This document shows, piece by piece, positions 25,727 through 43,184 of a DNA stretch of 64,000 nucleotides. The position numbers and the translations under genes were made by a program. The stretch's first letter is position 1; each line of letters starts with the position of its first letter. Source of the stretch: Syntrophales bacterium (lineage in GTDB: Bacteria > Desulfobacterota > Syntrophia > Syntrophales > UBA2210); assembly GCA_963666365.2 (NCBI GenBank), contig CAXXNF010000002.1, positions 704,001 to 768,000 on the forward strand. Direction: 5' to 3'. A model generated the notes under the pieces. That model was not told where the DNA came from and did no database searches. It saw only the letters and a program-made list of their open reading frames with translations.

Positions 25727-26542
25727 TCAGGCTTTTTCAGTTGCGTCCAGACCGCCGGCAAGCAGAACCCCTCCATCTACAACGATTTCTGCGCCGGTGG
25801 TGTAATTGGAGGCGGCCGTCGCAAAATAGAGCGCTGCTCCCACTATTTCATCGGGTTCGCCGATTCGCCCCATGGGAGTGATGCGCGCCATTTCCTCTTT
25901 CCCCTTTTTCTGCTCTTCCTCGGGGAGATGGAACCAGTGCGAATCAAGCATCTTTGTGCTGATCGGTCCCGGTGCAATCGTATTGACCTGAATGTTGTAA
26001 GGCGCCAGTTCCATAGCAAAGGCCTTGGTAATCATGCGGACGCCAGCTTTTGAAATGCTGTATACGCTTACCCCCGGCTCCGGCTTGAATCCGTCGACTG
26101 ATGCAATATTTATTATTTTTCCACCCCCCTGCTTCTGCATGATCCTGGCTGCCGCCTGGCTCGTAAAATAAAGCCCTCTGAGATTCAGATTCATAATGGT
26201 TTCCCAAAGCCGTTCGTCCGATTCCAGCACGCTGCCCATGGCCGGGCTGGCGCCGGCGTTGTTGACCAAAACATCGATTCTGCCATATTTCTCCATCACG
26301 GTGTCGATCAGCTTTTCTATTTCTTCCGTCTTGCCAAGATGTGACTGTAGGGCAACAGCCTCGCCGCCGAATGCCTTGATTTCAGAAACATTTGCTTCAA
26401 GATCGGCTATTTTGCGGCTCGTGAGCACTACCTTTGCACCCGCCCCGGCAAACCCCAAGGCAATCGCTTTTCCAATTCCCCTGCTGCTTCCCGTTACAAT
26501 CGCTACTTTTTCCTCCAAAGAAAATCTGGATACATCGAACAT
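25727..26542 (-). CDS. Short-chain dehydrogenase/reductase (SDR)
   Basis: TGSSRGIG, NNAG, YSISK. Confidence 0.95.
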   Translation of the reverse strand: MFDVSRFSLEEKVAIVTGSSRGIGKAIALGFAGAGAKVVLTSRKIADLEANVSEIKAFGGEAVALQSHLGKTEEIEKLIDTVMEKYGRIDVLVNNAGASPAMGSVLESDERLWETIMNLNLRGLYFTSQAAARIMQKQGGGKIINIASVDGFKPEPGVSVYSISKAGVRMITKAFAMELAPYNIQVNTIAPGPISTKMLDSHWFHLPEEEQKKGKEEMARITPMGRIGEPDEIVGAALYFATAASNYTTGAEIVVDGGVLLAGGLDATEKA

Positions 26543-26637: not shown

Positions 26638-29600
26638 TCAGTTCGGTTTTTTAATTCCCAATTTTTTCATCCTGAATGCCAATGTATTGGGATGTATGGC
26701 CAGCAATTCAGCGGCTCCCCCGGGTCCGTATATTTTCCCCCGTGTTTTTTCGAGTGCCCATTTAATATGGCGGCACTCGTTCTCTTTCAGGGTGACGGCG
26801 GAACGTTCATCCAGGGATGATATTTTATAATCCCTGTTTAAACAATAACGTACATTGACAGAGTCAGATGCGACATAGCGTTCAACAAAATTTTTAAGCT
26901 CTCTCACGTTGCCCGGCCAGGCATATTGAATAAGTTCCGTCATACCATCGGCTGAAATGCTTCGTGCCAGTTTTTCGGTTTTGAGGGCCTGAACATTTAA
27001 AAAATGGTTAATCAGCAGGGGGATGTCATCTCTGCGATCTCTCAGCGAGGGAATGAATATTGGGTATACATTAATTCTGTAGAATAAATCGGAGCGGAAC
27101 GCATTGCCTGCGATGCACTGTTCCAGATTTCTGTTTGTGGCGGTAATGAGCCGAAAATCCGATCGTATGGTTTCTTTTCCACCCACACGTTCAAATTCTT
27201 TTGTTTCGAGAACGCGAAGAAGCCGCACCTGCATGCCCAACGGGAGGTCGCCGATTTCATCCAAAAAGAGCGTACCTTCATGTGCCTTTTCGAAACGGCC
27301 TATGTGCCGCTGATCCGCACCGGTAAAGGATCCCTTCTCATGGCCGAAGAGTTCACTGTAAATCAATTCCTCTGAAAGGGCGCTGCAGTTAAGAGTGATA
27401 AAGGGTTTGTTCTTCCTGTGTGAGTGATTGACAATAGCCTTTGCAATTAATTCCTTGCCTACCCCCGTTTCACCTGAAATGAGGACAGTGGTATCGCTTT
27501 GTGCAATTTCTTCAACCTGCGACAGTACCTGCCTGATCTGGAGGCTTTTTCCGATGATGTTTTCAAAATGAGCCGGCGCATGCTGCTGACTTTGTTTTTC
27601 GTAGTGTGCTTTTATTTCTTTTATGTGGACCGACAATTCCTGGTGTTCCCTTTGCAGGACTTCATTATTAAGAAACAGTGCCGCATAGCTTGCCAGTGTT
27701 GAGAGCCTGTCCAATTGAGAAATGCTGAAGGCATTGCTCAATAGGCGATTATCATGATACAAGACCCCCATTATATTATTTTTTACAATAATGGGGACGC
27801 AGGCAGCGGATAGAATAGGCGTTCCATCGGGGTTTTCGAGGGTTTCCCCTATCCTCAAATCCTGTAACTTTCCCTCTCCGCAGGCCGCAACTTCTTCCAT
27901 TAACCTGAGAGAAGCAGCAAATTCCGGAAGATTAATCTGTTGATTCGTCAAATTTTTCGATGCCCGAAGGGTGAATAGTCTTGATTCGCTGGTTGGGTTA
28001 CATAAAAACAACCCTCCCCTTTCCGCCCCGGTTATCCGGTTAGCGCTTGAAATGATATGCTGAATTGCTTCCTTCGCAGTGCTCATCGAAGACAGATCTT
28101 TTATAATAGAAGCAAGTTTCTTCAATTGACCGTCATGCACAGTTGAGGTTTTGATAATAGGTTTTATGTCGTCCGGTATCAAGGATTCATTGAGTGAGGA
28201 GAGTATGCGGCTGATCGATTCGGCCGATTTTAGCGCCTGGCTTTGATTTCCTTTCTTCAGATAGGCCCTGGAAAGTTCAACCAGCGATTTTGCCAATTCA
28301 ATTGCGTGGCCTGAGATCTCTAGAAATTTAATTGACTGTTCTATTGTCGCAATGATTGCATCAGTGGATGCTCCCTCTTTTTTTGCGAGAAGGGCTTTGA
28401 ATCTGTAGGCGACGCCTTTCAGGAAGACATTTTCAGTGTTTACCATGTCTTCAATCTCTTTCCTGATCGAAATGTCCGGCAACGCGGGGAGGAGGCCCTC
28501 TTCGGCAGCCCAGCAAAGTTCCATGAGATAAGGCCACGGTCTTACCGACACATCTACCTGCCTGCTGAGCTTGCAGAATTGGCGAATATGGCGCAGGCAT
28601 CTATCATTTTCGCCTTTACGGTAAAAAGCGAATGCCAGCATCAACTCCCCCTGGATTGCAGTCCATTCCGGCTGTATTTTTCTTGCTTCCTTAACCGCGG
28701 GCACAAGATGCTGCAGTGCATCGTCGATATGCCCGATATCAAGCATAATCGCCCCTATGCATATACTTGAGTGGGCTGCAAGCCCGATGTCGCCTTTTTC
28801 CACACATTGTCGGCGGATAGAGTCAATCATTCCGATTCCCTGGGTGATTTGTCCCACTTGCCCGTAACATGTTCCAATGGTCATCGCGGCAAGCAGGGGA
28901 AATCTGCCGAGAGGAAATTTTTCCACATCGCTTAACGATTGTTCATAGTCATGCACCGCATCTTTGAACAATCCCTGCCAGTAGAGAAGAAATGTCTTGA
29001 AGTTGGATATGGAACGAATCGTTTTCTCGTCATCCAGTTCTTCAGCCACGGCACAGGCGTTTTCAAAATGGTTCAGGGCATTTTTATAGTGAGACTGCAG
29101 CCATCTGTTTTTTGATATATTCATATCGATCATTGCCTGATATTTGAGATCATTCAGATTTTTCGCTCTGAACATCGCATCATCCAAAATCGATAGTACT
29201 TTCTTTACGTCATGTCTCGCGGTGTTGAGCTTTCCGTATTCGATGGCTGCGTCACAGAAGATGCGATCGGCGTCTTCACCACATATGCCTGAAAGGTCGT
29301 CCAGTATTTTCACATAACACTTCAGCGCTTTTTCGATTCGGTATCCTGTCCTGTAATAATTCGCTGCTTTAATCAGCCACTTGTATTCATTAATATCGTT
29401 GATTTTATTTAAAAGATAGGGTGCGATTACCGCAGCTTTTGAAGAAGAATCCGGAAGCTCCCTTATGAGCATTTCAGCAATGAGCTGATGGTAGAGGACT
29501 TTCTCTTCCGCTCTCAAATTCATCTGAAACATGCGGAGTGTTTTTGTGTCGGGGAAAACGTATAATCCAATGCCTTCTCTTTGAAGGTAGCCCAGCGCTA

Positions 29601-29835
29601 TGGCCTTTTCGAAGGTGAGGAGAATTTGCGATGCCTTTTTTTTCGTGAGTTCCTGGACCCAGTCTATCGAAAAGGCGCCGTTAAAAAGCGAGGCTATCGT
29701 GAGAACGTGCCTGTCTTCATCAGTGACGTGGTCAAGGTTGATGCCGGTGTTGCCCATAATTACATGGTTCTGTTTCTCCCCGGGCAATGCGTCCCATGTC
29801 CAGGGAAAAATAAGACTGCACTCCTTTGAGTTCAC
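26638..29835 (-). CDS. sigma54-dependent enhancer-binding protein (TPR-like - GAF - AAA+ - HTH)
   Basis: GETGVGKE, GSFTGA, FLDEIG, WPGNVREL, C-terminal HTH; start uncertain. Confidence 0.93.
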   Translation of the reverse strand: MNSKECSLIFPWTWDALPGEKQNHVIMGNTGINLDHVTDEDRHVLTIASLFNGAFSIDWVQELTKKKASQILLTFEKAIALGYLQREGIGLYVFPDTKTLRMFQMNLRAEEKVLYHQLIAEMLIRELPDSSSKAAVIAPYLLNKINDINEYKWLIKAANYYRTGYRIEKALKCYVKILDDLSGICGEDADRIFCDAAIEYGKLNTARHDVKKVLSILDDAMFRAKNLNDLKYQAMIDMNISKNRWLQSHYKNALNHFENACAVAEELDDEKTIRSISNFKTFLLYWQGLFKDAVHDYEQSLSDVEKFPLGRFPLLAAMTIGTCYGQVGQITQGIGMIDSIRRQCVEKGDIGLAAHSSICIGAIMLDIGHIDDALQHLVPAVKEARKIQPEWTAIQGELMLAFAFYRKGENDRCLRHIRQFCKLSRQVDVSVRPWPYLMELCWAAEEGLLPALPDISIRKEIEDMVNTENVFLKGVAYRFKALLAKKEGASTDAIIATIEQSIKFLEISGHAIELAKSLVELSRAYLKKGNQSQALKSAESISRILSSLNESLIPDDIKPIIKTSTVHDGQLKKLASIIKDLSSMSTAKEAIQHIISSANRITGAERGGLFLCNPTSESRLFTLRASKNLTNQQINLPEFAASLRLMEEVAACGEGKLQDLRIGETLENPDGTPILSAACVPIIVKNNIMGVLYHDNRLLSNAFSISQLDRLSTLASYAALFLNNEVLQREHQELSVHIKEIKAHYEKQSQQHAPAHFENIIGKSLQIRQVLSQVEEIAQSDTTVLISGETGVGKELIAKAIVNHSHRKNKPFITLNCSALSEELIYSELFGHEKGSFTGADQRHIGRFEKAHEGTLFLDEIGDLPLGMQVRLLRVLETKEFERVGGKETIRSDFRLITATNRNLEQCIAGNAFRSDLFYRINVYPIFIPSLRDRRDDIPLLINHFLNVQALKTEKLARSISADGMTELIQYAWPGNVRELKNFVERYVASDSVNVRYCLNRDYKISSLDERSAVTLKENECRHIKWALEKTRGKIYGPGGAAELLAIHPNTLAFRMKKLGIKKPN

Positions 29836-30076: not shown

Positions 30077-30092
30077 GGGCATGAATTTTGCT
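30077..30092 (+). promoter_or_regulatory. sigma54 -24/-12 promoter of the GRE operon
   Basis: GGGCATGAATTTTGCT = GG-N10-GC; divergent from the bEBP gene. Confidence 0.75.
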
Positions 30093-30148
30093 CATTGACA
30101 GCAGCGGGTGTCCGAATGCAACTAAAATTACCAGTGAGGAGTGAGAAG

Positions 30149-32557
30149 ATGGAACTGCAGACATTGAAACCGGAAACGCTGAGAAAGAAAGTCGTCAGCA
30201 GGGCAATACGCAATATAAAGCGTGGCAATGAAGACGATGATTCTAAAAGGGGGATGTTCCGACCGGAGATAAAACTGGATCTCCAGCGTTCCCGCCTGAT
30301 GACCCAGTCATACAAAGAGACCGAGGGGCAGCCCATGGTTTTGCGTCGAGCGAAAGCGTTGGCGAATGTTCTGAATCATATGGGCATATTTATCAGGGAT
30401 TATGAAAGAATTGTGGGGTATCAGACAGCGGACCCCAACGGTATTTTTCATCCCATTGACCAGAACTGGAAGTCACCGCTGAGGCTTGCCAACAGTGAAG
30501 CAGGAAAGACGCTGCTTGATGATGCAGGGCGAAAGGAATTGAATGAACTGTGTGAATATTGGAAAGGGAAATCGCAGAGCGATCGACATCAGGCGGCATT
30601 GCCTGAGGACCTGAAAAAATACTGGACCTATGAAGGCACGTTCCTCTGGTCTCAGTTGTCTGAACTTGGAATCCCCAACTATAAAAAGCTGTTCCGGCTG
30701 GGACTTAAAGGTCTGATAAAGGAAATTGCCGGGAGGATGGAGGCATTAGACCAGGAGATTCCTCCCGATTATGTTGAGCAGAAAAACTTTTTGCAGGCGG
30801 CGGTAATTTCCCTGGAAGCGGTGATAAATTTTGCCAGGCGCTACGCTGAACTGGCGAGACGCTCATCGGCAGAAGAAAAAAATACAGCCCGGAAAAAAAT
30901 CCTCAAGGAAATTGCCCGGACTTGCGCAAGGGTGCCGGAAAATCCGCCTCGTACATTCATCGAGGCCATACAGTTCTTCTATTTTATTCACCTGGTGCGG
31001 TACCTCGAATATTCAACGTTGGGTATCGGCGTACGAGTTGATCACCTGTTTGGCTCCTATTATGAAAAGGATTTGAAAGAGGGCACAATTACGGAGGAGG
31101 AGACGCTCGGCATTCTTCAGCTTCTCTGGATCAAGCTCAACGAATTGGGATTAGTATATTCCCCCACGGTAAGCTCTGTCTATGGAGGTGTTGCCTCATT
31201 GCAGGCAGTCACCATTGGAGGCACCGATGAAAACGGAAATGATGTGACGAACGATCTGACCTATATGGTGCTGGAGGCGGCAAAAACGCTGAAACTGATT
31301 GAGCCGAGCATTGCCCTGAGATTACATGAAGGTACACCGGCCGAGGTATACGAAAAGGCCGTCGAAGTGATTAAAACAGGCATCGGCTATCCGTCGCTTT
31401 TCAACGATGATGCGTTGATTCCCCTCTATGAACGCTGGGGCGTACCTGTTGAAGATGCAAAAAAGTATGCCGTTTCCGGGTGTGTCTATATAGAGATCCC
31501 TGGAAAAAATATTGTGCGCCGGTCGGTGGGGTATCCGGTGCTGGCGAAAATGCTCTGGTGGGCATTGCATCAGGGCGTGAACCCGAAAACGGGCGAGCAG
31601 CACGGCGCCCGGACGGCCGATCCGGCGACATTTACAAGCTGGAAAGATGTGCTGGATGCCTATTGCGAGCAGGTAAAATTCTTTTTCACCAAAATCGAAC
31701 ATTTGGAGCGGATTAATAATGAAATTTTAGCTGAATATAACCCACGTCCGTTCTATTCGGCTCTGCTGGATGGCTGCATTGAAAAGGGGAAAGACTGCAG
31801 AAAATGGGTCTATCCATCCATGATCCACCATTTCGCTCAGGTGATTGGTGGGGTTAATGTCGCCGATTCCATCACGGCCGTTCAAAAGGTGGTGTTTGAC
31901 GACAAACTGGTTAGCCTTCCGGAACTGATAAAAATTATGAATAAAAATTGGAAAGGCCGAGAAGATGTTCGTCAGGCCTGTCTGAACGCCCCCAAATTCG
32001 GCAATGATGACGATTATGCCGACCGGATAGCACGGGAAGTAATGGCCAGGGGCGAAGCCGCTGTCGAAGAAGTAAAAGACGGCTTCGGCTTGTCGCACCG
32101 GGGTGATGGAAGCGCCGTATCCGCAACCTACGGCCTTGCCATCGACACTCCGGCCACCCCGGACGGGCGCATGGACGGGGAGCCTTTCTCCGATTCAACG
32201 CTGGCGCCGGCGCCGGGGCGGGACAAAAGAGGACCGACGGCCGTTCTTAAATCGGTATCCAAGATCAGCACGGTTGACACTTACAACCATCTGTTGAATC
32301 AGAAGTTCCTTCCCAAGTTTCTGGAAGAAGATTTGAAGCCTGCCTTTCTCGGTTATCTCAAGACATGGAAGGAGCTTGGCGTCCCTCATATCCAGTTTAA
32401 CATTGTGGACAAGCAGACGTTGATGAATGCAAAGGCCCAGCCGGAGAAGTACAGCGATCTCATTGTACGGGTTGCCGGTTTCAGCGCCTATTTTGTCGAT
32501 TTGTCGGGAGGACTGCAGGATCATATTATTGCAAGAACAGAGCAGAGCTTGATCTAG
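30149..32557 (+). CDS. Glycyl-radical enzyme (PFL2-like), substrate unknown
   Basis: C-terminal VRVAGFSAYF Gly loop; SGCVY Cys loop; GAGGAG RBS before ATG 30149. Confidence 0.95.
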   Translation: MELQTLKPETLRKKVVSRAIRNIKRGNEDDDSKRGMFRPEIKLDLQRSRLMTQSYKETEGQPMVLRRAKALANVLNHMGIFIRDYERIVGYQTADPNGIFHPIDQNWKSPLRLANSEAGKTLLDDAGRKELNELCEYWKGKSQSDRHQAALPEDLKKYWTYEGTFLWSQLSELGIPNYKKLFRLGLKGLIKEIAGRMEALDQEIPPDYVEQKNFLQAAVISLEAVINFARRYAELARRSSAEEKNTARKKILKEIARTCARVPENPPRTFIEAIQFFYFIHLVRYLEYSTLGIGVRVDHLFGSYYEKDLKEGTITEEETLGILQLLWIKLNELGLVYSPTVSSVYGGVASLQAVTIGGTDENGNDVTNDLTYMVLEAAKTLKLIEPSIALRLHEGTPAEVYEKAVEVIKTGIGYPSLFNDDALIPLYERWGVPVEDAKKYAVSGCVYIEIPGKNIVRRSVGYPVLAKMLWWALHQGVNPKTGEQHGARTADPATFTSWKDVLDAYCEQVKFFFTKIEHLERINNEILAEYNPRPFYSALLDGCIEKGKDCRKWVYPSMIHHFAQVIGGVNVADSITAVQKVVFDDKLVSLPELIKIMNKNWKGREDVRQACLNAPKFGNDDDYADRIAREVMARGEAAVEEVKDGFGLSHRGDGSAVSATYGLAIDTPATPDGRMDGEPFSDSTLAPAPGRDKRGPTAVLKSVSKISTVDTYNHLLNQKFLPKFLEEDLKPAFLGYLKTWKELGVPHIQFNIVDKQTLMNAKAQPEKYSDLIVRVAGFSAYFVDLSGGLQDHIIARTEQSLI

Positions 32558-32561
32558 GCTG

Positions 32562-33464
32562 ATGGAAAAGGGTTTAATTTTCAACATCCAGAAATTCAGT
32601 GTTCACGATGGTCCCGGTATCCGAACGACGGTTTTCATGAAGGGTTGCCCACTGGATTGTCTGTGGTGCTCCAATCCTGAATCAAAATCCTTCACGCCTG
32701 TTCTTCTGGTAAGAGACATAAATTGCAGGGGTTGTGGGGCCTGCGTTGCGGCATGCCCGCGCCAGGCCATCACCATTACGAGAGAATCGGGCAGAAGGAT
32801 AGACTGGGACAAGTGCAATCAATGTGTCTGCTGCGTCAGTCATTGCCTCTATGGGTCATTGGTGCAATGCGGCACGTATATGACCGTACGGGAGGTGTTC
32901 GATCAGGTCATGCAGGACGAGATCTTTTACAAAAATTCCGGTGGAGGGGTCACGGTTTCCGGTGGAGAAGCCCTGTCACAGAGCGGTTTTGTATCTTCCC
33001 TGTTGGCTGAATGCAAGAAGGCCGGTCTGCACACCGTTCTCGATACCGCGGGATATGCACCTTGGAAGAATATGGCGGCCCTATTGAAATTTGTAGATTT
33101 AATCTTGTTTGATATCAAGCATCTCGATTCCGCCTTACACCGGCACTATATCGGTGTCGGGAATGAACTAATTATTAAAAACCTCAAAAAGGCGGCGGGG
33201 ATGAAAGAAATATGGCTGCGCATTCCGCTCATAAAAGGAGTTAACGATTCGATTGAACATATCACCAGAGTAGCCACGCTGGGCAGGGATATCGGTGCAC
33301 GGAAAATCTCTCTCCTGCCGTACCATGAAGGGGGACTTTCAAAATCGGAACAGTTGGGAATTGCCTATCGTTATTCAGAAGGTGAAGCGCCTGCCGATGA
33401 GTACGTGCTGGAACTCAAAGATCTCATCGAAGAAGTGGGGGTACGCGCGACAATCAACGTATAG
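32562..33464 (+). CDS. GRE-activating radical SAM enzyme with 2x[4Fe-4S] ferredoxin insert
   Basis: HDGPGIRT, GCPLDCLWCSNPE, CRGCGACVAAC and CNQCVCCVSHC, SGGE. Confidence 0.96.
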   Translation: MEKGLIFNIQKFSVHDGPGIRTTVFMKGCPLDCLWCSNPESKSFTPVLLVRDINCRGCGACVAACPRQAITITRESGRRIDWDKCNQCVCCVSHCLYGSLVQCGTYMTVREVFDQVMQDEIFYKNSGGGVTVSGGEALSQSGFVSSLLAECKKAGLHTVLDTAGYAPWKNMAALLKFVDLILFDIKHLDSALHRHYIGVGNELIIKNLKKAAGMKEIWLRIPLIKGVNDSIEHITRVATLGRDIGARKISLLPYHEGGLSKSEQLGIAYRYSEGEAPADEYVLELKDLIEEVGVRATINV

Positions 33465-33675: not shown

Positions 33676-35367
33676 TTATGGCGTGCTTCTTTTGAGTTCC
33701 TCTTCAAGAAGCACTCTTCTCAATACCTTGCCGGCGCCGCTCATGGGCAGGTCGTCTCTGAATTCTACAGTTTTGGGCACCTTGTAAGGCGAGATGCCCT
33801 GTTTTGCCCATGCTATTATTCCGTCGGCCGTGACGGTATCCTTGAACGGGGCTTTCGGTACGATAAAGGCCTTGATGACTTGCTGTCCGGCAGGCCGATG
33901 ACGGCAGCTCTGTCCACGGCTTCATGGCGGCAGAGAAAGAGTTCCACTTCTTCGGGGAATACACTGAACCCCGATGTATTTATCATTTCCTTCTCCCTGC
34001 CAAGAAAATAGAGGTAGCCTTCTTCATCGAATTTACCCATATCCCCTGTATAGACCCATCCGTCGATAAGCGAGTCGTTCGTTTCCTCCGGTTTGTTCCA
34101 GTAGCCTTTGAACACGGCAGGATGATTAAGCGCGATCTCGCCCATTTCTCCTACCAGAACTTCCCAGGTTCTGTCCTCGAACGATACCATTTTGATGCCG
34201 GCGCCGGGATTGGGAATGCCCTGCCAGCCTTGTCCGTACTTGTGCTTGTCAAGGAGGATGAAGGTAGCGAAGGTGTCGGTTTTGGAAGGACCGTAGGCGG
34301 TTTCCACCAGAATACATCCGCCGGTGTCATCCTTCCAACGCTTTGCAATTTTTTCGGTAATCTGAACCCCGAAGCTGGTGGTCAGGCAGAGCTTAAGGGT
34401 TGATATGTCATAATTCTTCCTGTCCGGATGATCCATTATGCCGATATTCATGGGAACAGTAGCCTGAAAATAGTTGATATTATAGCGTTCGAGTGCCTGC
34501 ATGGCAGCTACGGGATCGAACATGACCATGAGGACCTGTGTGCTTCCCAGTGCGATCTGCCTGTCCACGCTCGATAGCATGCCGGCAATATGAAAGGTCG
34601 GAAGAATCGAGAGGCAGGAGATCGAATACCCACGGTATCTGGCAAATTCAAAACCAGCCTTGATTATGGTTATCATGTTGGCTATTTTAAAAAGTTTCGC
34701 GCCGTGAGTGAGGATGGCGCCCTTGGGAAGACCGGTAGTACCGCCCGTATACTGAAACTGGACTATGTCGTCGAGATCAACGTCGATCTGCACGGGTTCC
34801 GCCGGGAACTGCGACATGATATCCATGAATTCGATGGGCCCCTCATGGGTCATTTAGGAAACTCCATCATGGGGATCAGATTCATGGTTGTTGTGTCCGG
34901 GAGAAAATCATGCATACTGGTGACAACAACCTTTCCCAGATTTCATTCCTTACCGGCGACCGCAGCAACGGGATACAGAAGATCGAGAGAGACAACCGCC
35001 TTTGCGCCTGAATCCTGGAGTTCATAGGCCAGTTCCCATTCTTTGAAGACAGGACTGCAGGGAACTATTACTCCGCCCATCTTGTTGATGCCGTAGTGGG
35101 CAATATGATACTGGGGCAACTGGGAAGAAAGAGTGCAATGCGATCAACTTTTTTCAATCCTGAATCGACAAGAAAACGGGCGAATCGTTCGGACATGTCG
35201 TTCAGTTCGCCGTAGGTGACCTTTCTGCCGTAAAAGATCAAAGCAGTCCTGTCAGGATACTCCTTTGCATTATCGCGTAAATATTCAAAAATGGGTTTTT
35301 TATCTTTTGTGTATAGAGTTTCCTTGGGAAGAAAGTCAGGCCAACTTTTCATCCATATCTTGTCCAT
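33676..35367 (-). pseudogene. Long-chain acyl-CoA ligase, multiply frameshifted
   Basis: Fragments in different frames: MDKIWMKSWP..., YTGGTTGLPKG, YTGD, GKVLRRVL. Confidence 0.88.
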
Positions 35368-35374
35368 ATGAGCC

Positions 35375-37850
35375 TCCTCTTCCAATTCCCTGACATTGCC
35401 GGGCCATTCAAAAAAAAGCAGTTTTTCCGTTTCCTGATGGTTGATATTCTCCAGTGGTTTGTTGAATTTCTGGGCATAGAGGGTAAGAAAATAGTGGACC
35501 AGGAATGGAATATCCTCTTTTCTTTCACTGAGGCTCGGCACATTGATGGGAAAAACGTTGAGCTGGTAGTACAGATCCTGGCGAAACCGGCCGATTTCGA
35601 CCTCCTTCGCAAGATCACGGTTGGTTGCTGCCAACAGGCGAAAGTCGGATCTCAACGTTTCGTGCCCTCCCACACGTTCGAACTCTCCGCTCTGAAGCAC
35701 CCGCAGCAGTCTGACCTGAGTCTCCATAGAAATATCGCCGATTTCATCGAGAAATATCGTTCCACCGTTAGCCAGCTCGAATCTTCCCATGTGCCGTGTC
35801 GTTGCACCCGTGAATGCGCCATTTTCATGGCCGAAGAGTTCGCTGGAGATAAGGCTTTCAGACAAGGCGCTGCAATGGACTCGTATGAAAGGTTTTCCGT
35901 TGCGGGGACTATGACGGTGAATCGATCGAGCCACCATTTCCTTGCCGACGCCGGTTTCTCCAAGAATCAAAACGGTGGCATCGGTCTCAGCCACCTGATC
36001 TCTCTGGCTGAATACCTTCATGATGGCCGGGCTTTTTCCTATAAAGTCTTTAAAATGAATTGTCTCGATATATTCCTTTTCGTAATATTGCTTTTCTATC
36101 GCCTGTTTTTCGTACAAGTCATTCAAGGCCTTCCAGGCGTCGGCATTATCTATTGCAATGGCAGCCTGTGCTGCAAAAATAATTCAGAATGTCCAGATCC
36201 GACTCTCTGAAGGCGCTGCAAAACAGCCTGTTGTCGTGGGATAACACGCCCACGGTTTTATTACGAATGGTCATGGGAACGCATATGCACGAACGAATTG
36301 AGTCGACGCCTGCGGAACCAGGTTCATTTCGAATATCCAATTCTCTGATTCGACCCTTGCCCGATTTTATTGTCTCATCAATCAGTCTCATTGACATCAC
36401 GAATCCCGGATTGCGGATGTCTTCTCCGGTAAGGTTTTTTGCGGCCCTTAGAACAATATTTTTCCTGGCATCGTTTTCCACAAGAAATATCGCACCCTGT
36501 TCCGTCCACGTAATTCTATTTATCGTCGAAATAACAGGTCGAGACAGATCCCTGTAATTGCGAATCGTAGTTAATTCCTGGCTTAATCGCAAAATTTCCT
36601 CGAGAAGATTTTTACCGTACCGAAGGTCCTTTACAAGGGTCGAATATCATCGGGCACCAGCGCATCATTGAACGAATAGAGACCCCGCGCTGCCGTTTCT
36701 ACCCACTCCATGGCCTTCTTCCGCTTGCCGAACAGAAGATATTCCCTGGCCAGTTCTACCTTTGATTTTGCCAGCTCTATCTGATGGCCGCAGCTTTCAA
36801 GATAGGAAACGGATCGTTTGAGAGCATGTATGACATGTGTGGTCTCTGCACCTTCCTTCCTTTGTTGCAGTGTGCTGTAGCGATAGGCAACGCCCTTCAT
36901 CAGCAAATTGCCGCTTTCAATGGAATAGTGAATATCCTCTTACAGGGACATACCATCAACATGGGAAAATGTTCCCTCCTCCATCGCCCAAAAGATTAAC
37001 ATCCACAGGGCGCTGAACTTGACCGTCATGCAGACCTTTCCACTGAGGTCGAAATATTTCTGCAGGGCTGAAAGCGCCCGCTTGTGATCATTGAGCAGAT
37101 GCGAGGCATAGCATAGCAATGCCAATCCTCCAAGATGCGTATAGGTGTTGCGGCTTTTTATTGAATCTTCCAGAGACTCTTCAATGTAATGCAGGGCTTC
37201 CCCGGGTCGGTGAAGCTCAAGAAGCAAATAGCCTATCTATGTTCCCGCCAGCCCTATAACGGAAAAATTGCCGATATTGCGGCCATGCTCCCGAATGGCA
37301 TGGAGCATACCCAGCGCCTGAGAATACAGTCCCGTATGGCCCACACAGACTCCTGCGGTTAAGGCGGCTGAAAGAGGCAGGCTGTCTTTGGGAGAGGTGT
37401 CTTTCACATCTGGGACGAGGGTCTCGTAATTCTGAACGACCTCTCGATAATGTCCCGACCAGTAATTGAAAAACATGCCGAAAATTGTTGCCGATCGTTG
37501 AATGGTAGGATCGTCTATTTCCCGGGCCAATGCCCACACTTGCTTGAAATGGTGCAGCGTCGGGCGGTAAAGGGAACGAAGCCACTCGCTTTTGCCCAGA
37601 TGCATCTCAAGAAAGCCCAAAGAGTTTTTTTGCCCACAAGCTTTTGCGCGGCCCATGGCCTCTCGTATGACTGAGATTACCCGAGTCGGGTCTGTGTTAT
37701 CGGCGGAAACTTTGGCATATTGGAGCGCCGCTTCAATAAAAAGCTGATCGGCTTCATGCCCTCGGATTATTTTGAGGTCATCAATCACCTTATCATAATA
37801 GAATGGTACTGGCTGACTTCTTCCTTGGATGCGATCTTCTTTTGACTCAT
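35375..37850 (-). pseudogene. Fragmented TPR-GAF-AAA+ sigma54 activator, paralog of 26638..29835; HTH deleted
   Basis: Five ORF fragments collinear with the intact paralog (KGVAYR, GHQIELAKS, LRAAKNLT, HDNRL, GAFTGA, WPGNVRELE). Confidence 0.88.
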
Positions 37851-38195: not shown

Positions 38196-39752
38196 TTAAA
38201 ACTTAGTGGGCCAGTTGGCGAGTTTATGTTCGCTTATTCCCCTTGTTTTGGAGAAGTCCTGCGATTGTTGCAGCACCCTTATGATATGGTTCCGTGTATC
38301 ACGGGGATCGATTATATCATGGATAAAGTGCAGGCCGGCGGCGCCGTAAGGGTCAGTTCCCTCGGCCATCTTTGCTACCCGCTCCTCCTGTTCCTCCGGT
38401 GTCTTCGCCGGCGTGCCCCCGAAGACCACGTTTGCCGCAATTACCGGATCGACGAAGCTCATTTCCGCCGTAGGCCATGCGACAATTGAATCGGCGCCGC
38501 TGCCGGAGCCGCACATGTTCCAAAACGCCATGCCGTAGGCCTTTCTCACAATTACGGTAATCTTGGGTACCGTCAGAAGTCCCAGGGCGTTCATGAAATT
38601 CATGACGTGGGCACCTACCCGCTTACGCTCCGCCTCTCTTCCTACAAGAAATCCCGGAATGTCTTCCATGAAGACAAGGGGAATGTTGAAGGAATCACAC
38701 AGGCAGAGAAAACTCATGACTTTTTCGATGCCGTCCGTATCCATGGCGCCTGAGTTAAACCGGGGCTGATTCGCCACGATGCCGATCACCCTGCCGTCGA
38801 TGCGGGCAAGCGTGGTGATGACCGTCTGCCCGAAGAGGGGCTTGATAGGAAAGAGGCTGTTCGTGTCGACAATGCACTTCAAAAGCTGGTTCATGTCGTA
38901 GGTGCGGTTTCTTTTTTCCGGCAGCAAATCCAGAATGTGGGGCATGTTGGTACCGGAGTCTTCCGGCACGGGCGCCCTGGGGGGGAGTTCCTCGTTATGC
39001 GCGGGCATATAACTTAGATAATCACGAATAATTTGCATGCACTCGTCTTCGCTTTCGGCCGCGCGATCGGCCATGCCCGTCACCCGGGAATGCAGCTGCC
39101 AGCCCCCCAGTTCCTCGTCGGTGATGTTCTCACCCAGGGCGATTGAAAGAATGCGGGGACCAGATACACCCATAGCAGTACCTTTTACCATGACGACAAA
39201 ATCCGAAAGACAGGCCATCCAGGTCGGTTCACCGTAACATTTGCCCAGCACAGCCGTAACCAGCGGCGTTTCACGAACCCGGCTCATCATCTGAAGAAAG
39301 GTAGTGCGACCGCCGCCGCCGTAGGAGGCGAGTCCCCCCGATCCCATGATATCGGGCATCCGTGCCCCGCCTGCCTCGCCAAGGTAGATAACAGGAAATC
39401 CGTGTCGAATTGCTGTTTCTCTCACATCGTGTTCTTTTCGTCCGGCAATGCGGCTCGACGTTGCGCCCAGGACGGTAAAGTCTGCGGCAAGTACGGCGAC
39501 GGGCCGGCCGTTAATCATTCCATAGCCGCCGACTTTGCTGTCGGCAGGGCTCTTATCTTCCATTCCCGGCATGTCTGAGTGATTCAACATGCCGACTTCA
39601 GCAAATGAACCATCATCGACAAGTCTATCGATGCGCTCACGAGCGGTGTATTTACCCTCAGCATGCTGTTTGGCAATCTTTTTTTCCCCGCCCATCATAA
39701 GGGCCTTTTTCTTACGGCGGCTCAATTCCTCCATCTGCTGTTCAAAGGGCAT
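38196..39752 (-). CDS. Acyl-CoA carboxyltransferase (PccB/MmdA-type)
   Basis: TARERI, DFTVLG, GGARM, DIPGFLVG, RKAYG, DIIDPRDTR. Confidence 0.92.
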   Translation of the reverse strand: MPFEQQMEELSRRKKKALMMGGEKKIAKQHAEGKYTARERIDRLVDDGSFAEVGMLNHSDMPGMEDKSPADSKVGGYGMINGRPVAVLAADFTVLGATSSRIAGRKEHDVRETAIRHGFPVIYLGEAGGARMPDIMGSGGLASYGGGGRTTFLQMMSRVRETPLVTAVLGKCYGEPTWMACLSDFVVMVKGTAMGVSGPRILSIALGENITDEELGGWQLHSRVTGMADRAAESEDECMQIIRDYLSYMPAHNEELPPRAPVPEDSGTNMPHILDLLPEKRNRTYDMNQLLKCIVDTNSLFPIKPLFGQTVITTLARIDGRVIGIVANQPRFNSGAMDTDGIEKVMSFLCLCDSFNIPLVFMEDIPGFLVGREAERKRVGAHVMNFMNALGLLTVPKITVIVRKAYGMAFWNMCGSGSGADSIVAWPTAEMSFVDPVIAANVVFGGTPAKTPEEQEERVAKMAEGTDPYGAAGLHFIHDIIDPRDTRNHIIRVLQQSQDFSKTRGISEHKLANWPTKF

Positions 39753-39896
39753 GGTAGAAGCTTCCTCCTTCTTTGGTGTAGTGTAGGTAATGATACAAAA
39801 ATAATTATGGGGAAAATCCCCATTGTGCGATATCAAAGTATGAGGGTACACTTTCCATAGATCAGGTCCCCACCGGGGTCAATTGGGTGGTGTGTC

Positions 39897-41240
39897 CTAT
39901 CCCAGGATTCCGATAAAGACGCCGCCTGCGATGGCGGCGCCGATGGCGCCGGCCACGTTGGGTCCCATGGCGTGCATCAGGAGGAAGTTCTGCTTGTTTT
40001 CCTTCTGTCCCATCACCTGAACGACCCGTGCCGACATGGGGACGGCAGAGACGCCCGCCCCGCCGATCATGGGATTGATTTTCTCTTTCAGGAAGAGATT
40101 CATGATCTTTGCCAGAATCACGCCGGCGGCGGCGGCGCTGGCAAAGGAAACCACGCCGAGAACCAGTATGAGGAGCGTGTCCACCCGAAGGAAGTTTTCC
40201 GCCGACATGGTGCCGCCGATGGCAAGGGTCAGAAAGATGGTCAGCATGTCGATGAACACCGTCTGCGCCGTCTTGCTGAGCCGTTCAACCACCCCGCTCT
40301 CGCGAAAGAGATTGCCCACCATGAAACAGCCGATCAGGGGCGCCGAGTCGGGCACGAAGAGGATCACCACGATGGCGGTCACGATGGGGAAGAGGATCTT
40401 TTCCAGCTTCGACACCTTGCGAAGCTGGGGTTTCATGTAAATGGACCGCTCCTTCTTGGTCGTCAAAAGTTTGATAACCGGGGGAAGGATCAGCGGCACC
40501 AGGGCCATGTAGGAATAGCAGGCCACGGCGGTGGCGCCGATAATATGGGGCGCGAGCCGGGCCGTCACATAGATCGTGGTGGGGCCCTCGGCCCCGCCGA
40601 TTATGCCGATGGAACTTGCCTCAGGAAGGGTGAACCCACAGAAAATTGCCAGAAAAAAGGCGAAATACACGCCGAACTGCGCCGCCGCACCCAGGAGCAG
40701 CGTCTTGGGATTGGCCAGCATGGGGCCGAAATCGGTCAGCGCCCCCAGACAGAGAAATATCAGCGGGGGAAGAATCTGCCACATGATGCCGAAGGCGAAA
40801 AAGCGAGAAAGAAGCCCCACGGGCCGGGTGGGAATCTTCTCCTGATCCGTCTGCTGTGTCGTCACGATGACCGCCACCACATCGCCCGCATCGACTCTCT
40901 GGTTCTCCGTCACCCTGAACTTCGCGACCCGCCCGTAGACGGGGGAAGTGATCTCCCCGGCATCGGTCGCGACAATGGCCGCGCCGCACTCGAAGCTGTC
41001 CCCCCGCTCCACGGAGAGCCGGCTGACCATTCCCGGACTCGGGGCCCTGAGCGTGTATTCGTAGTCCATGAGCCCCCCCATGGGAAGATTGACCAGCATG
41101 ATGCCGAAGCCGATGGGCAGCAGCAGAAGGGGCTCCATCTTTTTGCCGATGGCAAGATATATGAGGACGCAGCCGATGATGATCATCAGGACGTTGCCCC
41201 AGGTAATATACTGAAAACCGCTTTCTAATAAACCGAACAC
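39897..41240 (-). CDS. Ion-translocating decarboxylase beta subunit (OadB/MmdB/GcdB family) with inserted biotinyl-like domain
   Basis: EPLLLLPIGFG, GALTDFGP, GIIGGAEGPT, YSYMALVP, GVSAVPMSAR, HAMGPNVAG. Confidence 0.95.
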   Translation of the reverse strand: MFGLLESGFQYITWGNVLMIIIGCVLIYLAIGKKMEPLLLLPIGFGIMLVNLPMGGLMDYEYTLRAPSPGMVSRLSVERGDSFECGAAIVATDAGEITSPVYGRVAKFRVTENQRVDAGDVVAVIVTTQQTDQEKIPTRPVGLLSRFFAFGIMWQILPPLIFLCLGALTDFGPMLANPKTLLLGAAAQFGVYFAFFLAIFCGFTLPEASSIGIIGGAEGPTTIYVTARLAPHIIGATAVACYSYMALVPLILPPVIKLLTTKKERSIYMKPQLRKVSKLEKILFPIVTAIVVILFVPDSAPLIGCFMVGNLFRESGVVERLSKTAQTVFIDMLTIFLTLAIGGTMSAENFLRVDTLLILVLGVVSFASAAAAGVILAKIMNLFLKEKINPMIGGAGVSAVPMSARVVQVMGQKENKQNFLLMHAMGPNVAGAIGAAIAGGVFIGILG

Positions 41241-41660: not shown

Positions 41661-43184
41661 TCAATATTTCCCTCCGTGATCGATTTTGACCTGCGCTCTG
41701 TCTGTTTCTCCCTCAGTCGTTCGGGGAAGTCTCTCTACAAACAGAACATATTTCGGTTTTTTGTAGCGGGCGATTTTTGTCGTTACATAATCGATCAATT
41801 CCTGAGGACTCAAATCGGCGCCGGCTTTGGGTACGCACACTGCCTTTATCGCTTCCCCCCAGGTCTCGTCGGGAACACCAATGACACAGACATCTTCGAT
41901 GCCGTCATGGCTGAGAATCGCCTTTTCAACTTCTGCAGGGTACACGTTTTCTCCGCCCGGTTTGATCAGCTCTTTTTGCGCCTTGCGCTTGACATACCAG
42001 AGATATCCCTCTTCATCAAAACGGCCTATGTCTCCCGTATGGTGCCATCCGTTTCTGAAGGTATAGGCCGTTGCCTCTTCCATGTTCCAATATCCCTGAA
42101 ATACTGAAGGTGACTGTACGCAGATTTCACCAGGTTCTCCCAGGGGTACTTCGTTGTCATAGTCGTCGAAAAGTGAAACCCGGGCAAGAAGTGCGGGCTT
42201 TCCGGCGCTGCCCGGCCTGTCAGCGGCATTGCCACCCGTTACCGGAATTGCCTCGGTCTGCGCGTAGCCGCTGTAAAATACCGCATGCGGCGCGAGTGTG
42301 AGGATGGTGCGCACGCTCTCCGGATCCTCAAGGCCGCCGATACTTCGAAGACTGGAAAGATCACAGGGTGTTTCTTTATGGGCATCGATGAGCATTTTCA
42401 ATATGGGTGCAAATGATCCGAAGGTGGTCACTCTTTCGGCTTCAATGAGTTTCAGGGCCAGAGCGGGGTCGAAACGATCGACGATGACGTTTTTCGCTCC
42501 CCCATGAAGAATTGCCATAGAGGTTGAAAGCGCGGCGATGTGAAAGAGGGGAAGGATGCAAAGGTGACACGCATCTTCGCCCATGCGCTCCTGCGCGAGA
42601 ATCTGCATGTTGGTGGCGATTACATTCCCCTGACTCAGGAGGGCGCCTCGGGGCGTCCCTTCAACGGCCGCAGTATGGATAATTACATATCCCGCTTCGG
42701 CGGGAATGTCATATGTCGTGTCGGCGCCTTTTTTTCTGTAAAGCGTTTCAAAGGGTTGAAAGGAGGGAAGATCCGATTGTGCTGACATCGCATACCACAT
42801 TTCTATTGATGCGACGTTTTCCGCTGCTTCGGCGGCTGCGTTCAGATACTCCGATCCCGCAAAAAGGGCCTTGGGTGTGCAGTCCTTCAGGATATGGGAG
42901 ATTTCGTTACACTGAAAGCGCCAGTTTACGGGAACGACTATTGCGCCTATCTTTGCCGCGGCCCCGTAGAGAATCATGAAGTAATCCGAATTGTGAGCGA
43001 CTACGGCAATTCGATCCCCCAGTTGAATTCCCTGCTCGACAAGCCCCGCAGCACAGTGATCACATTTCATCTTGTAATCGCGGAACGTCATGCGCAGGTC
43101 TCCATAGACCAGTGCATCCCGATCTGCATGAAGCACGGCATTTCTGGATATCACGTCGTAAACAGTAAAGTCGCGAAGTCCCAT
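41661..43184 (-). CDS. AMP-binding acyl-CoA ligase
   Basis: HTAAVEGTPRG (variant P-loop), GYAQTE, HTGDIG, GGENVYPAEVE. Confidence 0.92.
   Translation of the reverse strand: MGLRDFTVYDVISRNAVLHADRDALVYGDLRMTFRDYKMKCDHCAAGLVEQGIQLGDRIAVVAHNSDYFMILYGAAAKIGAIVVPVNWRFQCNEISHILKDCTPKALFAGSEYLNAAAEAAENVASIEMWYAMSAQSDLPSFQPFETLYRKKGADTTYDIPAEAGYVIIHTAAVEGTPRGALLSQGNVIATNMQILAQERMGEDACHLCILPLFHIAALSTSMAILHGGAKNVIVDRFDPALALKLIEAERVTTFGSFAPILKMLIDAHKETPCDLSSLRSIGGLEDPESVRTILTLAPHAVFYSGYAQTEAIPVTGGNAADRPGSAGKPALLARVSLFDDYDNEVPLGEPGEICVQSPSVFQGYWNMEEATAYTFRNGWHHTGDIGRFDEEGYLWYVKRKAQKELIKPGGENVYPAEVEKAILSHDGIEDVCVIGVPDETWGEAIKAVCVPKAGADLSPQELIDYVTTKIARYKKPKYVLFVERLPRTTEGETDRAQVKIDHGGKY

Follow-up and report, generated by a model that had tools for sequence, protein, structure and literature searches.

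Which reaction would be carried out by a glycyl radical enzyme (GRE) that has a Tyr in its Cys loop, at the place where its closest solved relatives have their catalytic Glu? GREs perform some of the hardest anaerobic reactions, and new GRE classes have opened pathways such as the formation of trimethylamine, the use of hydroxyproline, respiration on sulfonates and the activation of hydrocarbons. The question is raised by a gene in a stretch of 64,000 nucleotides from a Syntrophales bacterium (contig CAXXNF010000002.1, positions 704,001 to 768,000), hereafter called the window. This gene encodes a GRE with a Cys-Val-Tyr loop that belongs to a large uncharacterised GRE family, here called CVY. 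Judged by its sequence, the CVY GRE does not pass the test that defines any of the characterised classes, as far as these could be tested. The enzyme and its activase are defined by the following features.

30149..32557, plus strand: GRE of the Cys-Val-Tyr loop family, 802 amino acids (PF02901, 541 bits; PF01228, 85 bits)
31478..31495, plus strand: Cys loop GCVYIE, from the translation, with Cys445 at 31481-31483, Tyr447 at 31487-31489 and Glu449 at 31493-31495 (802-amino-acid numbering)
32468..32485, plus strand: Gly loop RVAGFS, from the translation, with Gly777 as the radical site
32562..33464, plus strand: GRE-activating radical SAM enzyme, 300 amino acids (TIGR02494, 332.6 bits against a cut-off of 174)

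The GRE reading frame is open from 30038, and the gene is taken as 30149-32557, with a GAGGAG ribosome-binding site preceding the ATG at 30149. This start was chosen because most of the homologs listed have a length of 802 or 798 amino acids and span the sequence from 30149 onwards (homolog coverage is 100% of the GRE sequence beginning there). The first-pass annotation, made from the letters alone, had opened the locus at 30077, which is the position of a promoter element and not of the gene start. It was right that the Gly loop is intact (RVAGFS at 32468-32485). It also found the Cys loop, although its span of 31478-31489 covers GCVY only and GCVYIE extends to 31495.

The protein combines a barrel domain with a C-terminal glycine radical domain carrying RVxG, and has a catalytic Cys and a cognate radical SAM activase, as is typical of the PFL-like superfamily. 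Its AlphaFold model (pLDDT 92.7, pTM 0.93) was compared with the solved GREs by Foldseek against the PDB, which gave TM scores of 0.86-0.91 at 22-33% identity. The modelled fold is the canonical one and cannot tell the GRE classes apart, all of which it matches equally well. The loops are more telling. In the HMMER alignments, GCVY is aligned without gaps to GCTE of the isethionate enzyme IseG, to GCVE of CutC and to GCVE of glycerol dehydratase (GDH), and Cys445 is aligned with the catalytic Cys of all three. Since this alignment is gap-free, Tyr447 occupies the position of the eliminases' catalytic Glu, which bears out the earlier remark that a Tyr two residues after the Cys is unlike the known classes. 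The residue before Cys445 is Gly444, so there is no Cys-Cys pair.

The activase begins four bases past the end of the GRE gene. It contains the radical SAM motif CPLDCLWC (CX3CX2C) and two ferredoxin-like motifs, C55-x2-C58-x2-C61-x3-C65 and C85-x2-C88-x2-C91-x3-C95. These two CX2CX2CX3C motifs, together with the TIGR02494 score, confirm the dedicated activase with a 2x[4Fe-4S] insert that had been proposed. For the comparison of neighbourhoods, 108 loci were gathered, 28 of them from species genomes and 80 from metagenomes. With the window included and identical copies merged, 101 distinct loci were obtained, in which related loci are not independent samples. No Cys-rich small open reading frame (ORF) adjoins the GRE-activase pair in the window. 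The two small ORFs 3' of the activase contain one and zero Cys and have no conserved counterpart, and no small-gene cluster recurs across the 101 loci. A shell protein of bacterial microcompartments (BMC) was found nowhere in the whole 94%-complete genome. The earlier statement that small-subunit and BMC genes are missing therefore holds for this pair and this genome. An activase is found at position +1 in 66 of the 90 loci with an ORF there, with many exceptions in the branch of 55-62% identity, and is the only regular neighbour of the GRE across the 101 distinct loci. The intact and strongly constrained GRE and its own activase form a two-gene module.

The Tyr is a trait of the family and not of this single protein. 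A word-indexed homolog search returned 2065 proteins at E <= 0.001 among 7994 candidates scored, and the best 120 of these 2065 matches to the query, which are 75-97% identical, were used. A second search, seeded with the 57%-identical representative P0124, added 120 more with 64-100% identity to P0124. Each search lists the 120 best clusters at 90% identity, so the CVY family comprises at least 240 clusters. The pattern C-x-Y-x-[E/D]-x-PGK is present in 240 of the 240 representatives listed (54-97% identity to the query), and the residue before the catalytic Cys is Gly in 239 of them and Ala in one. The family alignment holds 237 rows, namely the query and 236 of the 240 representatives; P0371 (no GC[VA]Y match) and three proteins outside 760-840 amino acids were left out. 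As the GC[VA]Y filter fixes the Tyr in this alignment, its conservation is read from the 240 representatives instead. Other positions can be counted in the 237 rows: R284, G292, R651, D653 and S655 are present in all 237, E449 in 236, E172 in 233, L291 in 231, R458 in 229 and R457 in 224. Against the 93%-identical copy in locus L031, the dN/dS ratio is 0.034 at a dS near 1. The constancy of C-x-Y-x-[E/D] in the listed representatives and the low dN/dS rule out a private loss-of-function change, which had been named as a way in which the proposal could fall. Likewise, the word orphan was apt in the sense of uncharacterised, but not in the sense of isolated, the CVY family being very large.

In the profile search, the GRE falls below every NCBIfam equivalog cut-off (bits scored/cut-off): HpsG 552/1000, HypD 464/1100, HpfG 448/1000, CutC 438/1050, IAD 380/1100, HPAD 285/1150 and PFL (TIGR01255) 95/994. 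The subfamily model for PFL2/glycerol dehydratase, TIGR01774, fails as well (562 against a cut-off of 678). Of the solved GREs, IseG scores 454 bits, CutC 452, GDH 439, 2F3O 392, MasD 370, the structure 7E7L of the arylacetate decarboxylase AAD 338 and TutD 318, and none exceeds 33% identity to the query. An exhaustive HMMER search of 50%-identity representatives found the family's own representative at 57% and then nothing above 44%. Most of the next 20 representatives (P0125-P0144, 38-44% identity) have no Glu at Cys+2. Among the 60 nearest 50%-identity representatives, only P0166 reaches an equivalog cut-off (HpsG). The ESM Atlas returned generic GRE clusters only. Scoring below the equivalog cut-offs and sharing 33% identity or less with the solved structures, the GRE does not cluster with a characterised GRE, as the first-pass annotation had anticipated.

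Two trees were built, a FastTree tree of 147 rows (ten fragments below 700 amino acids dropped) and an IQ-TREE quick-search tree of 56 selected rows. Both are unrooted and drawn at the midpoint, and their tips are representatives, with no characterised sequence itself among them. The CVY family has a support of 99-100 in the two trees, and its sister is P0126, a single representative. The family is nested in a clade of 19 rows (SH-aLRT 99), none of which has a Glu at Cys+2, whereas the representatives with Cys-x-Glu and the decarboxylase-like ones make up a clade of their own with a support of 98. A 9-row clade (support 97) with P0139 and P0143 shares the CVY side of the main split. The sister-clade context adds little, as relatives of P0125 turned up in just two of the 339 class genomes, in short loci with no informative neighbours.

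The literature gives the yardstick for the loop. According to the available parts of a June 2026 GRE review, all characterised eliminases and isomerases keep CXE, the Glu of which hydrogen-bonds and deprotonates the substrate and is essential where tested. PFL and TdcE require an adjacent Cys-Cys. The phenylacetate decarboxylase PAD has Gln484 in place of the Cys-loop Glu and needs a Tyr, and AAD has no small subunit. A Cys-x-Tyr class is absent from sections 4.3, 5 and 7 of that review, and a literature search found no characterisation of a Cys-x-Tyr GRE. Three candidate papers proved, in their available text, to treat other enzymes: PMC12583861 a limonenylsuccinate synthase, PMC13101534 benzene activation and PMC8163825 the Ass/Bss-like GREs of Hermodarchaeota, the last being set apart with no sequence comparison.

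What might the active site look like? The residue roles used here come from the available parts of the June 2026 review and from PDB entry titles. The sulfonate-binding R187 and Q191 of IseG fall in a 5-residue deletion of the CVY GRE, and Arg676, Val678 and Phe680 of IseG are aligned to Ser655, Val657 and Ala659. His164 of GDH, the proton donor to the leaving hydroxyl, is aligned to Glu172; His281 and Ser282 of GDH are aligned to Leu291 and Gly292, and Asp447 of GDH to Ser459. Thr502 of CutC is aligned to Arg458, with Arg457 beside it, and Arg651 is invariant. From these positions the pocket can be pictured with small or apolar walls (Leu291-Gly292-Ile293-Gly294 and Ser655/Val657/Ala659) and one or two Arg, and Tyr447, Glu449 and Glu172 are candidates for the catalytic acid or base. 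In the model, the strands 441-443 and 447-449 flank Cys445 in a Cys hairpin. Being i and i+2 on one strand, Tyr447 and Glu449 should face the same way, as follows from strand geometry. The combination of Arg with an apolar pocket would suit an anionic substrate bigger than isethionate or glycerol, for which a carboxylic acid whose body is apolar is the most likely candidate.

A carboxylic acid is also what the neighbourhoods hint at. The only recurrent enzyme beside the GRE is an AMP-forming acyl-CoA ligase, which is found in 12 of the 101 loci (at +1 in three, at +2 in eight and at -1 in one). In the branch of 57-60% identity, seven loci (L102, L110, L076, L084, L071, L086 and L081) have the order GRE, activase, CoA ligase with ligases of the same cluster, and five of the seven have an adjacent TetR gene. 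The ligase stands directly 3' of the GRE in L075 and L088, and it also occurs in L109 and L002, while the window retains a decayed remnant of it. For the neighbouring CoA ligases, short-chain dehydrogenases/reductases (SDRs) and AbfD-like proteins, NCBIfam gives only generic fatty-acid/acyl-CoA ligase or SDR subfamilies. AbfD/HpaB-like genes lie 5' of the GRE in L001, L008 and L096 (GREs 83, 81 and 54% identical to the query). Another five kinds of gene each turn up in 2-5 loci: thiolase, 3-hydroxyacyl-CoA dehydrogenase, a same-cluster SDR, aldehyde:ferredoxin oxidoreductase and an HGD-D-like protein. As the acyl-CoA ligase recurs downstream, the product may be an acid that enters CoA-dependent breakdown. 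The link to organic acids or acyl compounds suggested by the first-pass annotation thus gains modest support from these neighbourhoods. Its evidence, the SDR and CoA ligases of the window, did not hold up as well, since few of these neighbours are conserved partners; what lies next to the activase is the decayed remnant of a CoA ligase instead of an intact gene.

The expression of the module is approached through two features upstream of it.

30077..30092, plus strand: sigma-54 -24/-12 element GGGCATGAATTTTGCT, of the form GG-N10-GC, with GG at 30078-79 and GC at 30090-91
26638..29835, minus strand: divergent sigma-54 enhancer-binding protein (bEBP), 1065 amino acids, with GAF domain, PF00158 (231 bits) and GSFTGA loop

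The element sits 72 nt 5' of the GRE ATG, in the 313-nt spacer between the divergent units, so that the GG-N10-GC promoter noted earlier stands. GG-N10-GC occurs three times in the window against 4.9 expected and is not above chance; the weight of the motif rests on its position and conservation only, not on its count. An element at equal distance, measured as 192-216 nt before a conserved N-terminal motif of the GRE, is present in five of the nine loci with an activator of this bEBP family upstream. The divergent bEBP that had been described alongside is likewise in place. Its long N-terminal region gives a weak TPR signal and is followed by a GAF domain, the AAA+ sigma-54 domain, a lid and a C-terminal HTH. 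Members of the bEBP family are found at -1 in nine of the 75 loci with an ORF there, and a TetR gene in nine. The genome contains rpoN (218.8 bits), and with the -24/-12 element and a bEBP that has a GAFTGA-type loop, the parts of a sigma-54 operon are all represented. In this genome, the GRE module is predicted to lie under sigma-54 control. Taken with its intact loops, it very probably encodes an active and inducible GRE/activase pair.

The best reading, to which we give about an even chance, is that of a working, inducible GRE acting on a carboxylic acid, in which a Tyr-Glu pair would stand in for the usual Glu. The activase would put the radical on Gly777, which would pass it to Cys445, and the thiyl radical would then abstract a hydrogen from the carboxylic acid. 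The general-base Glu of the eliminases and isomerases would be replaced by Tyr447, and the Tyr447-Glu449 pair would most likely perform the proton transfer as a relay. The acid product would be handed to a CoA ligase for CoA-dependent breakdown. More tentatively, our guess for the reaction is a proton-coupled radical fragmentation of such an acid, of the lyase type. The CVY reaction probably differs from those of the related dehydratases and lyases, and lyase-type fragmentation, decarboxylation, hydroalkylation and something new are all candidates for its type. We regard it as somewhat probable that the CVY GRE falls outside the standard eliminases, PFL and the X-succinate synthases (XSS). The 'new radical chemistry' of the first-pass annotation overstates what we infer from this.

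Several observations weigh against the reading of a Tyr-Glu enzyme for carboxylic acids. The pocket was drawn not from coordinates but from alignments, both pairwise and multiple, with an identity of 30-33%, and the register is ambiguous along the strand 651-661, where a 2-residue insertion is common to the sister representatives. The closest solved proteins by pairwise score are eliminases (IseG, CutC and GDH), and Glu172 could be a relocated base for ordinary eliminase chemistry. Tyr at Cys+2 is not unique to CVY, as two unrelated representatives, P0162 and P0179, have it as well; P0162, which bears GCVY in another clade, is not close to AAD. As for the acid, the CoA ligase is absent within two genes in 89 of the 101 loci, the CoA link may be limited to some sub-branches, and the host genomes are rich in acyl-CoA genes in any case.

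The rival that survives best is a 1,2-eliminase or isomerase acting on a hydroxylated or substituted acid, with its base moved to Tyr447-Glu449 or to Glu172. The isethionate sulfite-lyase IseG/IslA (5YMR, 7KQ3), the B12-independent glycerol and propanediol dehydratases (1R8W, 5I2A, 9RCO) and the choline trimethylamine-lyase CutC, all eliminases, have the highest pairwise scores (28-33% identity). They share with CVY the barrel fold (TM 0.88-0.89), the single large subunit, the activase of the two-ferredoxin-motif type and the Cys-loop length and PGK turn, in which GDH and CutC are identical to CVY. Glu172 at the position of GDH His164 and Ser459 at that of GDH Asp447 would fit an elimination, as would the aldehyde:ferredoxin oxidoreductase and SDR genes close by in a few loci. 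However, the Glu kept by every characterised eliminase and isomerase (see the available parts of the June 2026 review) is a Tyr in CVY, and CVY is split from the CXE clade by branches with supports of 98-99. The place of GDH His281/Ser282 is taken by Leu291/Gly292, IseG's Arg and Gln for sulfonate binding have no counterpart, being deleted or replaced, and no eliminase equivalog cut-off is reached. This explanation is considered unlikely.

The loop of PAD leads to a different rival, a decarboxylase of the PAD/AAD type acting on an aryl- or alkyl-alkanoate or a dicarboxylate, in which Tyr447 would be the proton donor and the resulting acid would pass to the CoA ligase. PAD has a Cys loop without CXE (Gln484) and a catalytically essential Tyr, and AAD (7E7L) has no accessory subunit, as far as the available parts of the June 2026 review describe them. 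Several conserved Arg could hold one or two carboxylates, and the CoA ligase and the beta-oxidation-type neighbours would fit the conversion of a dicarboxylate to a monocarboxylate. The essential Tyr of PAD, Tyr691, lies off the Cys loop, however, whereas Tyr447 lies on it. The representatives that match the IAD model stand in a different clade of the tree, the HPAD and IAD models are far from reached (285 against 1150 and 380 against 1100), and no HPAD-type small subunit is found. A decarboxylase is accordingly held to be rather improbable.

At nearly the same low level, and slightly below it, we place a hydroalkylase related to the XSS, in which the thiyl radical would activate a hydrocarbon or another C-H substrate and add it to fumarate bound by Arg, with no small subunits involved. 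Its main argument is the tree: the XSS-like representatives P0139, P0143 and P0210 are on the CVY side of the main split in both trees, and among solved structures P0139 and P0143 match TutD (522 and 525 bits) and MasD (508 and 494 bits) best. Like CVY, the XSS (BSS TutD, 4PKC/5BWE; MASS MasD, 9O8U) have no Glu at Cys+2 and have apolar pocket positions, which are small in CVY. The CVY hosts, which include Smithella and Desulfatibacillum, overlap with hydrocarbon degraders, these two being alkane and alkene degraders. The downstream CoA ligase can be likened to AssK.

The motifs, however, speak against an XSS. In the alignment, TutD has LCMSPG, PNGWHNP and TGQAV, and the XSS-like representatives keep C-M-S/A, PW.N and Q. 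At the same columns the CVY GRE has C-V-Y for C-M-S/A and I559/H561 for PW.N, and Gln707 corresponds to Asp653 or Ser655. Arg508, Trp613, Asn615 and Gln707 of BSS are what we take to be the fumarate-binding residues; the Arg pair that CVY has at Cys+12/+13 might be the equivalent of Arg508, though the alignment there is ambiguous. The beta, gamma and delta small subunits of the XSS are not present beside the CVY pair, and no Cys-rich small ORFs are conserved across the 101 loci. TutD (318 bits) and MasD (370 bits) score below the eliminases, and no mutase or carboxyltransferase set recurs beside the GRE. Because the loop and PW.N motifs of the XSS are lacking and the small subunits are absent, XSS membership fails; the kinship of CVY with the XSS in the trees, as read from the representatives, remains.

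A formate C-acetyltransferase (PFL), as some members are automatically named, or an inactive relic is very improbable, since PFL needs the Cys-Cys pair where Gly precedes Cys445 and TIGR01255 reaches 95 against 994, while a relic would hardly combine a dN/dS of 0.034 with invariant catalytic residues and an adjacent activase. One further solved protein deserves comparison with CVY, PflD of Archaeoglobus fulgidus (2F3O), described in the June 2026 review as a stand-alone large subunit from a hydrocarbon-linked anaerobe whose function has been disputed for two decades. In structure it resembles the CVY GRE at a TM score of 0.89 with 32% identity, but its pairwise score is only 392 bits.

The remaining genes around the module include one possible associate, which is unproven as such.

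25727..26542, minus strand: SDR oxidoreductase 3' of the bEBP

The arrangement with this SDR is repeated in L031, and L033 and L034 (as well as L004, merged with L034) have an SDR of the same cluster at +2; SDR cluster 5 lies within two genes on either side in 4 of the 101 loci. On the other side of the module, a decayed second copy of the bEBP extends over 33885-37797 (minus strand). Its pieces match bEBP residues 174-563, 571-719 and 742-981 in two frames with internal stops, and the HTH is missing. The copy runs into remnants of an AMP-binding acyl-CoA ligase, with an N-terminal piece inside the ORF 35068-36126 and a larger piece at 33885-34751. The decayed bEBP and ligase pieces may be true pseudogenes or long-read frameshift errors. 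Further on, a carboxyltransferase (PF01039) stands beside OAD_beta (PF03977) at 38196-41240 (minus strand). By its domains this pair has the hallmark of a sodium-pumping decarboxylase of glutaconyl-CoA or methylmalonyl-CoA, an enzyme to be expected in a syntrophic fermenter. Another acyl-CoA ligase, at 41661-43184 (minus strand), is intact.

By record titles, CVY members occur in Smithella, Syntrophaceae, Desulfobacterales, Desulfacyla and several 'Promethearchaeota' metagenome-assembled genomes (MAGs), and an exact-sequence look-up added the cultured Desulfatibacillum aliphaticivorans and D. alkenivorans DSM 16219. Of the 339 genomes of the host class, 31 contain a close copy (E <= 1e-200); these span 17 of its 72 genera and include 15 of its 204 high-quality genomes. 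The only other genome of the host genus has no CVY copy. With 31 of 339 class genomes and this absence within the genus, the gene is accessory and patchily distributed. One genome of the same family-level group has three tandem CVY copies (G247:C53:1765-10127) with 53-55% identity to the query. The genome of the window itself (4.0 Mb, 2 contigs) has three further GREs with Cys-x-Glu loops (GCYEP, GCNEP) and an identity of about 30% to the CVY enzyme: a tandem pair (L029, 5732-8176 and 8195-10705; G000:C2) and a single gene (L030, 7602-10046, minus strand; G000:C1).

The contigs titled Promethearchaeota (L005, L006 and L008) carry CVY copies that are 82-83% identical to those of Smithella. On the 223-kb contig of L006, the GRE lies between two HTH_10 (PF04967) regulator genes, with no adjacent activase. 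The Asgard-labelled copies look like a recent cross-domain transfer rather than mis-binning, but this is not proven.

If the family is taken as a whole, a bolder proposal can be made, which we hold to be possible but doubtful. CVY would be an eighth GRE class in which the Tyr447-Glu449 pair acts in catalysis as a proton-coupled relay, or through a transient tyrosyl radical in equilibrium with Cys445. Its reaction on carboxylic acids would be of a type new to GREs. Anoxic sediments and digesters would harbour this class widely, and Desulfobacterota and Asgard archaea would have shared it recently.

The family also matters for the way in which genomes are read. CVY members are automatically annotated as 'formate C-acetyltransferase' or 'choline trimethylamine-lyase', and a Cys loop with a single Cys and no Glu speaks against either name. 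The former name feeds wrong inferences about pyruvate metabolism into the reconstruction of syntroph genomes. A Smithella genome paper counts genes named 'formate C-acetyltransferase', which may or may not be CVY members, as enzymes of pyruvate and acetyl-CoA (PMC5606693). With at least 240 clusters, in Desulfobacterales, Desulfatibacillum and Asgard MAGs among others, the CVY enzymes are abundant, and the two cultured hosts together with the sensor-regulator pair put their function within experimental reach.

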